From sequence record MK327935.1: a stretch of 64,000 nt of DNA; one strand, given 5' to 3'. Of the stretch, positions 50,132 through 50,743 are shown in pieces; position 1 is the first letter of the stretch, and every line of letters begins with the position of its first letter. Below the pieces are notes generated by a model, which worked only from the letters and a program-made list of their open reading frames with translations, did not search any database and was not told the DNA's origin. The translations under genes and the position numbers were made by a program. The stretch is from Escherichia phage vB_EcoM_G2494.

Positions 50132-50334
50132 TTACATTTAGGGCAATGCGGTTCTTTAATATAATACCCGTCTGTCTTTGGAACACTAACAGGAGCGGTT
50201 TTTATATTGTATTCAGTGAAACAACGAAAACAAGTTACGTTTTCTACAGACTGACGTTTCACCCAATCACCGGAATATAGATCATTTTTATTTGTCATAT
50301 TCAACCACCACAATGTTAATGTCTGGAGTAGCAA
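50104..50334 (-). CDS. hypothetical zinc-finger protein
   Basis: 76 aa; CFRCF...CPKCKC. Confidence 0.4.
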   Translation of the reverse strand: MLLQTLTLWWLNMTNKNDLYSGDWVKRQSVENVTCFRCFTEYNIKTAPVSVPKTDGYYIKEPHCPKCKCRLYWSHL

Positions 50335-50743
50335 TATTAATGATCTCTTCTACACATTCCCACTCAAGGCCACCGATACCGCAACCGATTTTAGGAATAT
50401 AGAAAGGCTGTATAGCACCTTCAAAAACATCATTGATAGTCTCAAATCCTTTCAGGATAGCACCATATTCAGCATTTGGACCCGGTCGGAATTGGGTATA
50501 GAGATTCACCCCGCACCAGTTATAACCATTAACTTGATGCGTCCAGACACTAAACCCACCCAGCTTTTCTACCTTACCGCGAGAAGTTTGCTTGTCAATC
50601 TCTAACGCTTGCGGGAACTCTTTCGCGATCTTTGCAGCAATACCAGCGCCCATAGTATGAAAACAATTACAACCATGAATTAAATGACCGTTTCCTTGTT
50701 TAAACAGGGCGATGAGATCGCCCTTTACAGTATCAATAATCAT
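50288..50743 (-). CDS. macro domain protein (TARG1/DarG-like ADP-ribose hydrolase family)
   Basis: 151 aa; GDLIALFK...HLIHGCNCFHTMGAGIAAKIAKEF matches the TARG1/OARD1-type macro signature. Confidence 0.7.
   Translation of the reverse strand: MIIDTVKGDLIALFKQGNGHLIHGCNCFHTMGAGIAAKIAKEFPQALEIDKQTSRGKVEKLGGFSVWTHQVNGYNWCGVNLYTQFRPGPNAEYGAILKGFETINDVFEGAIQPFYIPKIGCGIGGLEWECVEEIINIATPDINIVVVEYDK

Follow-up and report, generated by a model that had tools for sequence, protein, structure and literature searches.

Erasers of DNA ADP-ribosylation in phages and bacteria

The ADP-ribosylation of DNA by DarT represents a widespread anti-phage defence, and an inventory of the erasers that counter it helps to predict the host range of phages, which is relevant to phage therapy and phage engineering. 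In a preprint of November 2025, a T4 transposon library was screened by HIDEN-SEQ on a DarTG2 host, where tk.4 came out as the single significant gene with its insertions being depleted (bioRxiv 10.1101/2025.11.20.689424). A clean tk.4 knockout sensitised T4 to DarTG2, which is a genetic result from experiments in M9 medium at 30 °C, and the authors renamed the gene adfM (anti-DarT factor Macrodomain) and pointed to its likeness to Mtb DarG (bioRxiv 10.1101/2025.11.20.689424). According to the same preprint, it "seems likely" that ADP-ribose is taken off the DNA enzymatically, a statement made there without enzymology. Beyond this preprint, the papers on tk.4 that we found give only the old A1pp domain annotation, and a search for literature linking Krischvirus or RB49 to DarTG returned none.

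The name AdfM was also given to gp104 of phage PhiKZ in a 2026 Cell Reports paper, in which the protein removed DarT2-made ADPr in vitro and the exchange N23A, affecting the conserved Asn of loop 1, reduced its activity (PMC13309987). Furthermore, T4 AdfN, the NADAR enzyme encoded by gene 30.3, acts against DarTG1 (PMC11825919). Among cellular macrodomains, human TARG1 cleaves both dT-ADPr and U-ADPr (for U-ADPr see PMC13036486). SCO6735 of Streptomyces coelicolor (PDB 5E3B) was studied by Hlousek-Kasun et al. and is without both TARG1 residues, the Lys as well as the Asp (PMC9411070). It efficiently cleaves thymidine-linked ADP-ribose on DNA and protects cells from DarT; its variants Q85A and Q85E are inactive and N27S is nearly inactive, and a water-mediated mechanism was proposed in which the Gln positions the distal ribose (PMC9411070). 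In addition, SCO6735 hydrolyses U-ADPr on RNA (PMC13036486).

Here, we analysed a window of 64,000 nucleotides from Escherichia phage vB_EcoM_G2494 (sequence record MK327935.1), which carries a gene of the T4 tk.4 type. We regard it as probable, with a chance of roughly 0.75, that its product is an early-cluster macrodomain acting as a Gln-type eraser of DarT2-made thymidine-ADPr on phage DNA.

The tk.4 gene and its neighbourhood

The features of the locus are listed by their positions in the window.

50288..50743, minus strand: tk.4 / adfM-type CDS for a stand-alone TARG1/DarG-class macrodomain (ATG-to-TAA ORF, 151 aa + stop)
50752..50757, minus strand: Shine-Dalgarno sequence GAGAGG, 8 nt 5' of the tk.4 ATG, as read from the sequence
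50615..50677, minus strand: loop-1 motif, residues 23-43 (HGCNCFHTMGAGIAAKIAKEF), holding H23, N26 and the diphosphate-binding loop G32-A-G34
50594..50596, minus strand: codon of D50, the family-specific invariant Asp (103/103 family members)
50492..50500, minus strand: codons of Y82-T83-Q84, placed by HMM alignments (Y82 codon at 50498-50500)
50369..50395, minus strand: loop-2 (phosphate-binding) motif P117-K-I-G-C-G-I-G-G125, aligned to TARG1 PRIGCGLDRLQW
50296..50298, minus strand: ATG of the downstream small Zn-binding protein gene, whose first 11 nt lie within the end of tk.4

The initial annotation had marked a 151-aa ORF at 50288-50743 without giving its strand. The ORF is confirmed and lies on the minus strand, the plus-strand translation of the interval being riddled with stops. 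It is real and far beyond chance, as follows from its Pfam Macro and PHROG 335 matches, from homologs in 2,784 phage records and from a high-confidence AlphaFold2 model. The macro signature H-G-C-N-C-x3-M-G-A-G-I-A-x-K-I-x3-F, which had been read from the translation before, matches residues 23-43 letter for letter. Short plus-strand ORFs of 36-37 aa inside tk.4 were dismissed as noise.

The stop codon of the upstream gene vs lies at 50759-50761, which leaves an intergenic gap of 15 nt to tk.4, and the overlap with the downstream gene is found with the same length in the RB49 annotation. Hence, tk.4 sits within a tightly packed, co-oriented cluster, and its overlap with the Zn-binding gene has the appearance of an operon-like, translationally coupled arrangement. 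The two small genes downstream of tk.4 (50104-50298 and 49889-50131, minus strand) encode Zn-binding domains, matching Phage_zn_bind_2 with E 2e-23 and Phage_zn_bind with E 6e-34, respectively; they are translationally overlapped with tk.4 and occupy the place of T4 tk.1-tk.3.

On the upstream side, vs (50759-51118, minus strand) is annotated as a valyl-tRNA synthetase modifier, and its product has a signal-peptide-like start (MKKLTIIAMIAMMFSAGALA), which can be set beside that of T4 Vs (locus L002, 7387-7734; MTKILVLCIGLISFSASA). Conserved cysteines and a signal-like start are odd for a supposed modifier of a cytoplasmic synthetase. In the HIDEN-SEQ preprint, vs was conditionally important in minimal medium (bioRxiv 10.1101/2025.11.20.689424). 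The next gene, vs.1 (51126-51716, minus strand), encodes a protein that begins with a signal-like segment and matches the Pfam SLT lytic transglycosylase domain (E 8e-6); it may represent a secreted or periplasmic murein-active protein of the early cluster. Inside the 5' end of vs, a sigma-70-like promoter close to the consensus is found at 51109-51081 on the minus strand (TTGACA, 17-nt spacer, TG-TATGAT, 11/12). Such a promoter could allow transcription of tk.4 and the genes after it without that of vs. It must be mentioned that the promoter scan returned 19 hits against 11.7 +/- 3.4 expected and that these are consensus matches only.

Phage identity and orthology to T4 tk.4

The window belongs to a Krischvirus, i.e. 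to the RB49/JSE/MIZ group of T4-type coliphages, with the 3.5 kb surrounding tk.4 being 95-99% identical to 58 phage records. The protein is almost the same as RB49 Tk.4 (149/151 residues identical, 99%) and shares 44% identity with T4 Tk.4 over the full length (E 9e-45). T4 and RB49 have the gene order tk - small ORFs - tk.4 - vs - vs.1 - regB in common, and a tblastn search with T4 Tk.4 gave a single match in the window, which is this locus. Because of the similarity, the synteny and the single copy, the gene represents the Krischvirus ortholog of T4 tk.4 (adfM); full-length similarity, single-copy state and the tk-vs-regB position are the features that we used to define this orthologous group. 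Krischvirus DNA presumably has unmodified cytosine, in contrast to the T4 context.

The initial annotation had proposed a role against host ADP-ribosylating defences of the DarT type, and this proposal gains support from the DarTG2 sensitisation of T4 upon loss of the ortholog, as reported in the preprint. The proposal was thus right but not new, since RB49 already has an annotated tk.4 and the role of the T4 ortholog was published in 2025.

Fold, class and distribution of the family

The protein matches Pfam Macro PF01661 with 28.7 bits (gathering cut-off 22; E 1.3e-6), residues 22-135 corresponding to profile positions 1-118 of 118, and PHROG 335 with E 1e-61. A match to Pfam DUF7334 was weak (13.8 bits versus a cut-off of 27) and treated as noise. 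An alignment of 103 family sequences was the basis for all conservation counts and for the AlphaFold2 model, which reached a mean pLDDT of 97.4 and a pTM of 0.91. With this model, Foldseek placed TARG1 on top (E 7.8e-11, TM 0.78-0.84, ~29% identity), followed by Poa1p, the DarG proteins of T. aquaticus and M. tuberculosis, BT1257, the T. africanus DarTG fusion and SCO6735. The model displays an alpha/beta macro fold of three layers, in which two glycine-rich loops serve for ADP-ribose binding. The nearest neighbours in structure and sequence are TARG1, DarG, Poa1p and SCO6735/BT1257 and not MacroD, PARG or viral macrodomains, which places the protein in the TARG1/ALC1-like class. Because of the Pfam, PHROG, AlphaFold2 and Foldseek results, the earlier label "TARG1/DarG-like macro domain" is correct at the class level.

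The similarity to Poa1p, together with an old database label, is all that speaks for a housekeeping role as ADP-ribose-1''-phosphate phosphatase or O-acetyl-ADP-ribose deacetylase. In RB49 the tk.4 product is labelled "phosphatase; contains A1pp phosphatase motif", but this label goes back to a domain-name transfer of 2003-2006 and not to an assay (PMC1524935). Moreover, there is no evident Tpt1/KptA-type source of Appr1p, and such a role would leave the DarTG2 phenotype of T4 unexplained. We regard a housekeeping enzyme as highly improbable and an eraser of DarT2-made ADPr as the preferred reading.

Homologs of the protein were detected by tblastn in 2,784 of 50,697 phage records (~5%), including T4-like, rV5-like and Felix-O1-like phages, Ackermannviridae, Pseudomonas and Vibrio phages and jumbo phages; the hosts comprise Escherichia, Klebsiella, Pseudomonas, Vibrio, Acinetobacter and others. 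The closest relatives outside Krischvirus are found in rV5-like Vequintavirus with 67-68% identity (e.g. P0006 / phage Bas59), compared to 44-51% in T-even phages. The closer relationship to the Vequintavirus copy suggests a horizontal exchange of tk.4 between unrelated coliphage lineages, here Krischvirus and Vequintavirus. A bacterial homolog on a Pelagimonas chromosome (P0099) is a stand-alone gene amid housekeeping genes; neither darT nor a prophage was found next to it, and this case does not inform on the origin of the family.

The active site: glutamine in place of lysine

The reference proteins were aligned to the family HMM, and the result agrees with the hmmsearch alignments. A plain MAFFT alignment, in which the strand of BT1257 and SCO6735 was misplaced relative to Tk.4, was replaced by this HMM alignment. 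The residues at the key sites are as follows.

Window protein and T4 Tk.4: loop-1 His site H23; loop-1 Asn site N26; K84/K80 site Q84; D125 site G124
BT1257 and SCO6735: loop-1 His site H; loop-1 Asn site N; K84/K80 site Q; D125 site A
TARG1: loop-1 His site H; loop-1 Asn site S; K84/K80 site K; D125 site D
Mtb DarG: loop-1 His site N; loop-1 Asn site N; K84/K80 site K; D125 site G
PhiKZ gp104: loop-1 His site not aligned; loop-1 Asn site N; K84/K80 site K; D125 site G

Accordingly, Q84 of the window protein stands where TARG1 (K84) and DarG (K80) have their catalytic Lys, and the Asp of TARG1 is missing, its position being taken by G124. Within the family, Q84 is found in 102/103 sequences, Y82 in 103/103 and T83 in 102/103. 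Because of this constancy, the DarG/TARG1 lysine is systematically replaced by Gln throughout the Tk.4 family; the preprint on T4 does not comment on the missing lysine (bioRxiv 10.1101/2025.11.20.689424). The binding loops are conserved as well: in loop 1, G24, N26, M31, G34 and A36 do not vary and 99/103 sequences have H23; in loop 2, no variation is seen at P117, G120 or G122, and 100/103 sequences have G125. By the HMM alignment, the protein has the equivalents of SCO6735 His24, Asn27, Gln85 and Gly128 (H23, N26, Q84 and G125), with neither the Lys nor the Asp in either protein. The lysines K34 and K89, by which SCO6735 positions DNA, are not conserved in the family; position 33 is Ala in 95/103 sequences, and positions 86-89 are variable (R86 here, Q in T4).

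Two further residues set the family apart. D50 is present in 103/103 members, and the aligned residue is Tyr or Trp in BT1257, SCO6735, Mtb DarG and PhiKZ gp104 and deleted in TARG1. Conversely, the equally invariant Y82 aligns with Ile or Pro in DarG, SCO6735 and BT1257. This reciprocal swap at the two positions, seen in the alignment only, suggests that D50 and Y82 may be in mutual contact near Q84.

The lack of the catalytic DarG lysine also raises the question whether hydrolysis is needed at all. The protein could work as a stoichiometric DarT2 inhibitor that protects by binding to DarT2 or its DNA site, i.e. by "interaction-inhibition", with hydrolysis being dispensable. There are precedents for such a mode of action: the Q85A variant of SCO6735 still strongly inhibits DarT in vitro (PMC9411070), and the non-enzymatic AdfB of ICP1 neutralises DarT by direct interaction (PMC11481870). 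However, the ADPr-binding and SCO6735-type catalytic positions are (near-)invariant among the 103 homologs, which fits selection for catalysis and not for binding of one variable toxin, and the protein has no counterpart of the C-terminal DarT-binding domain of DarG. Pure inhibition is therefore improbable in our view, compared to the enzymatic removal of thymidine-ADPr.

ADP-ribosyltransferases and other counter-defence genes of the phage type

A Mod-like transferase had been noted initially at 8916-9419, and this ORF (minus strand, 167 aa) is indeed ModA/ModB-like. It matches PHROG 832 (E 9e-21) and no Pfam family, is labelled ModB or RNAP ADP-ribosylase in phages with 99% identity, shares ~29% identity with T-even Mod and displays the R-S-ExE pattern as YRG (R44), SFT (S70) and ERE (E132/E134). 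RB49 encodes furthermore Alt and a second Alt-C-terminal-like ART (ADPrib_exo_Tox; locus L005, 12392-14443 and 11490-12314, minus strand). Given these ARTs in the phage type, the macrodomain might regulate the phage's own ADP-ribosylation by removing ADPr placed by Alt/Mod-like transferases on host proteins, and a tuning of the Mod-like transferase had been proposed on first reading. Generally, it is ARH/DraG enzymes that reverse Arg-ADPr, and to our knowledge this linkage is not handled by the TARG1 macrodomain class, whose substrates are acidic-residue esters and thymine/uracil N3 linkages. Tuning of Mod/Alt is unlikely because these enzymes modify arginine, as T4 Alt and ModA do at R265 of RNAP alpha (PMC8120803). 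Moreover, tk.4 lies 41 kb from the Mod-like ORF and is unlinked to ART genes, and T4 tk.4 is dispensable without DarTG2. Self-regulation is thus hardly credible, and we return to the phage DNA as the probable target of the eraser.

The NADAR gene 30.3 of RB49 (locus L005, 25610-26089, minus strand) matches Pfam Phage_30_3 with 132 bits and adjoins the ligase gene; it falls outside the window, as expected. A tblastn search of the 64-kb window for T4 61.2 (AdfA) gave no homolog at E <= 0.01. Krischviruses seem to combine the two types of eraser with at least three ARTs. RB49-type phages are hereby confirmed as carriers of the T4-type anti-DarTG2 gene and, going by RB49, also have the anti-DarTG1 NADAR gene 30.3.

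Proposed mechanism and breadth of the substrate range

In the proposed mechanism, infection would unleash the host toxin DarT2, which ADP-ribosylates thymidine N3 within the TNTC motifs of phage DNA in its single-stranded form and would thereby block replication. A Tk.4-type protein, made from the tk-vs-regB cluster and probably expressed early as judged from this cluster, would act as an orphan "antitoxin-like" eraser. It would bind ADP-ribose via the two glycine-rich loops, G32-A-G34 and P117...G125, and the macrodomain would hydrolyse the ribose-thymine bond, so that replicable DNA is restored. Catalysis would follow the Gln-type route of SCO6735 and not the Lys-type route of DarG/TARG1, with N26 holding Q84, Q84 orienting the distal ribose and water doing the chemistry. 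We infer that both the window protein and T4 Tk.4 act as dT-ADPr hydrolases and that the phage needs the gene on DarTG2 hosts. The absence of the essential DarG residue K80 and of SCO6735 K34/K89 speaks against this explanation, as does the fact that identity to the T4 protein is only 44%.

Given how widely the family is distributed, its main substrate may be broader or of another kind. It is conceivable that other ADPr conjugates are the main target, such as uracil-ADPr RNA, products of undiscovered ART defences or small ADPr-derived signals and toxins, and that the action against DarT2 is just one facet. The number of phage records and of host genera is consistent with this view, as are the U-ADPr activity of the Gln-type relative SCO6735 (PMC13036486), the small-molecule targets argued for by Iyer et al. 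and the family's own D50 and Y82, both absent from DarG, TARG1 and SCO6735. On the other hand, the sole known phenotype of the family is DarTG2-specific, tk.4 being the only significant gene of that screen, and SCO6735 was inactive in assays on 5'-phosphate and 2'-OH RNA ADPr. Hence, we consider a main substrate other than DarT2-made thymidine-ADPr as unlikely, though less so than the alternatives discussed above.

A related but more tentative idea concerns the family as a whole. The Tk.4-type macrodomains, present in ~2,800 phage genomes, could represent a third catalytic solution in the TARG1 class, which would be Gln-type with its own invariant N80-Y82-Q84 trio on one beta-strand face, with an invariant Asp50 in place of the aromatic residue and without the DNA-positioning lysines of SCO6735. 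Such a site could give a broader base-ADPr specificity (DNA thymine, RNA uracil, perhaps others) and make the proteins general erasers against several ART defences, as opposed to antitoxin mimics specific for DarT2; we regard this as a possibility on the doubtful side.

Comparison with known systems

What is new here is modest, namely the Gln-for-Lys active site of T4-type AdfM, its split from the Lys-type AdfM of chimalliviruses and the invariant D50 and Y82. The protein is not a DarG but the product of an orphan gene. On the DarG model NCBIfam NF048014 (PADLOC PDLC02990) it scored 48.4 bits versus a cut-off of 250, with model positions 2-141 of 338 covered. Furthermore, the 151-aa protein has no counterpart of the C-terminal DarT-binding domain, no darT lies next to tk.4, its neighbours being vs upstream and the small Zn-binding ORFs downstream, and the Lys80 in the "PTK" strand of the DarG macrodomains (Mtb 5M3I, T. 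aquaticus 5M31/5M3E, T. africanus 7OMU) is replaced by Gln in both the window protein and T4 Tk.4. Similarly, the human protein TARG1/OARD1 (4J5R/4J5S) has the dyad K84/D125 where Q84/G124 are found here, and Ser instead of Asn in loop 1; because the dyad is absent, the protein is not a TARG1 ortholog.

PhiKZ gp104, the chimallivirus AdfM, is likewise a phage-encoded stand-alone macrodomain against DarTG2, but it is imported into the phage nucleus, shares 26% identity with the window protein, has a Lys-type site ("FPTKDNW") and resembles DarG much more closely, scoring 133-138 bits on DarG models compared to 48-51 bits for the window protein. Based on the retained "FPTK" lysine, the low identity and these scores, the T4-type (Gln-type) and PhiKZ (Lys-type) AdfM proteins are separate lineages of the same class that bear the same name. 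For practical work, this means that mutagenesis designs, inhibitor ideas and family names should not be transferred between T4-type and chimallivirus AdfM.

T4 AdfN follows the same strategy as Tk.4 as an orphan antitoxin-like eraser of T4-type phages, and RB49 has both 30.3 and tk.4, but AdfN has the unrelated NADAR fold and targets the guanine-linked ADPr made by DarT1 and not thymine-linked ADPr. T4 Tk.4, i.e. AdfM itself, resembles the window protein in locus, length class and the H/N/Q/G active-site set, whereas 56% of its residues are unlike and the host-range context is different as well; the anti-DarTG2 phenotype was demonstrated for T4 tk.4 only. The closest active-site type is that of SCO6735, which has the same TARG1-class fold and is, as the window protein, a stand-alone macrodomain without a cognate DarT. 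The two proteins share ~23% identity; SCO6735 has "IGQ" where Tk.4 has "YTQ", and the Tk.4 family additionally has the invariant D50 and Y82. Moreover, SCO6735 is encoded by a bacterial, DNA-damage-induced gene, whereas the copy described here is a phage gene.
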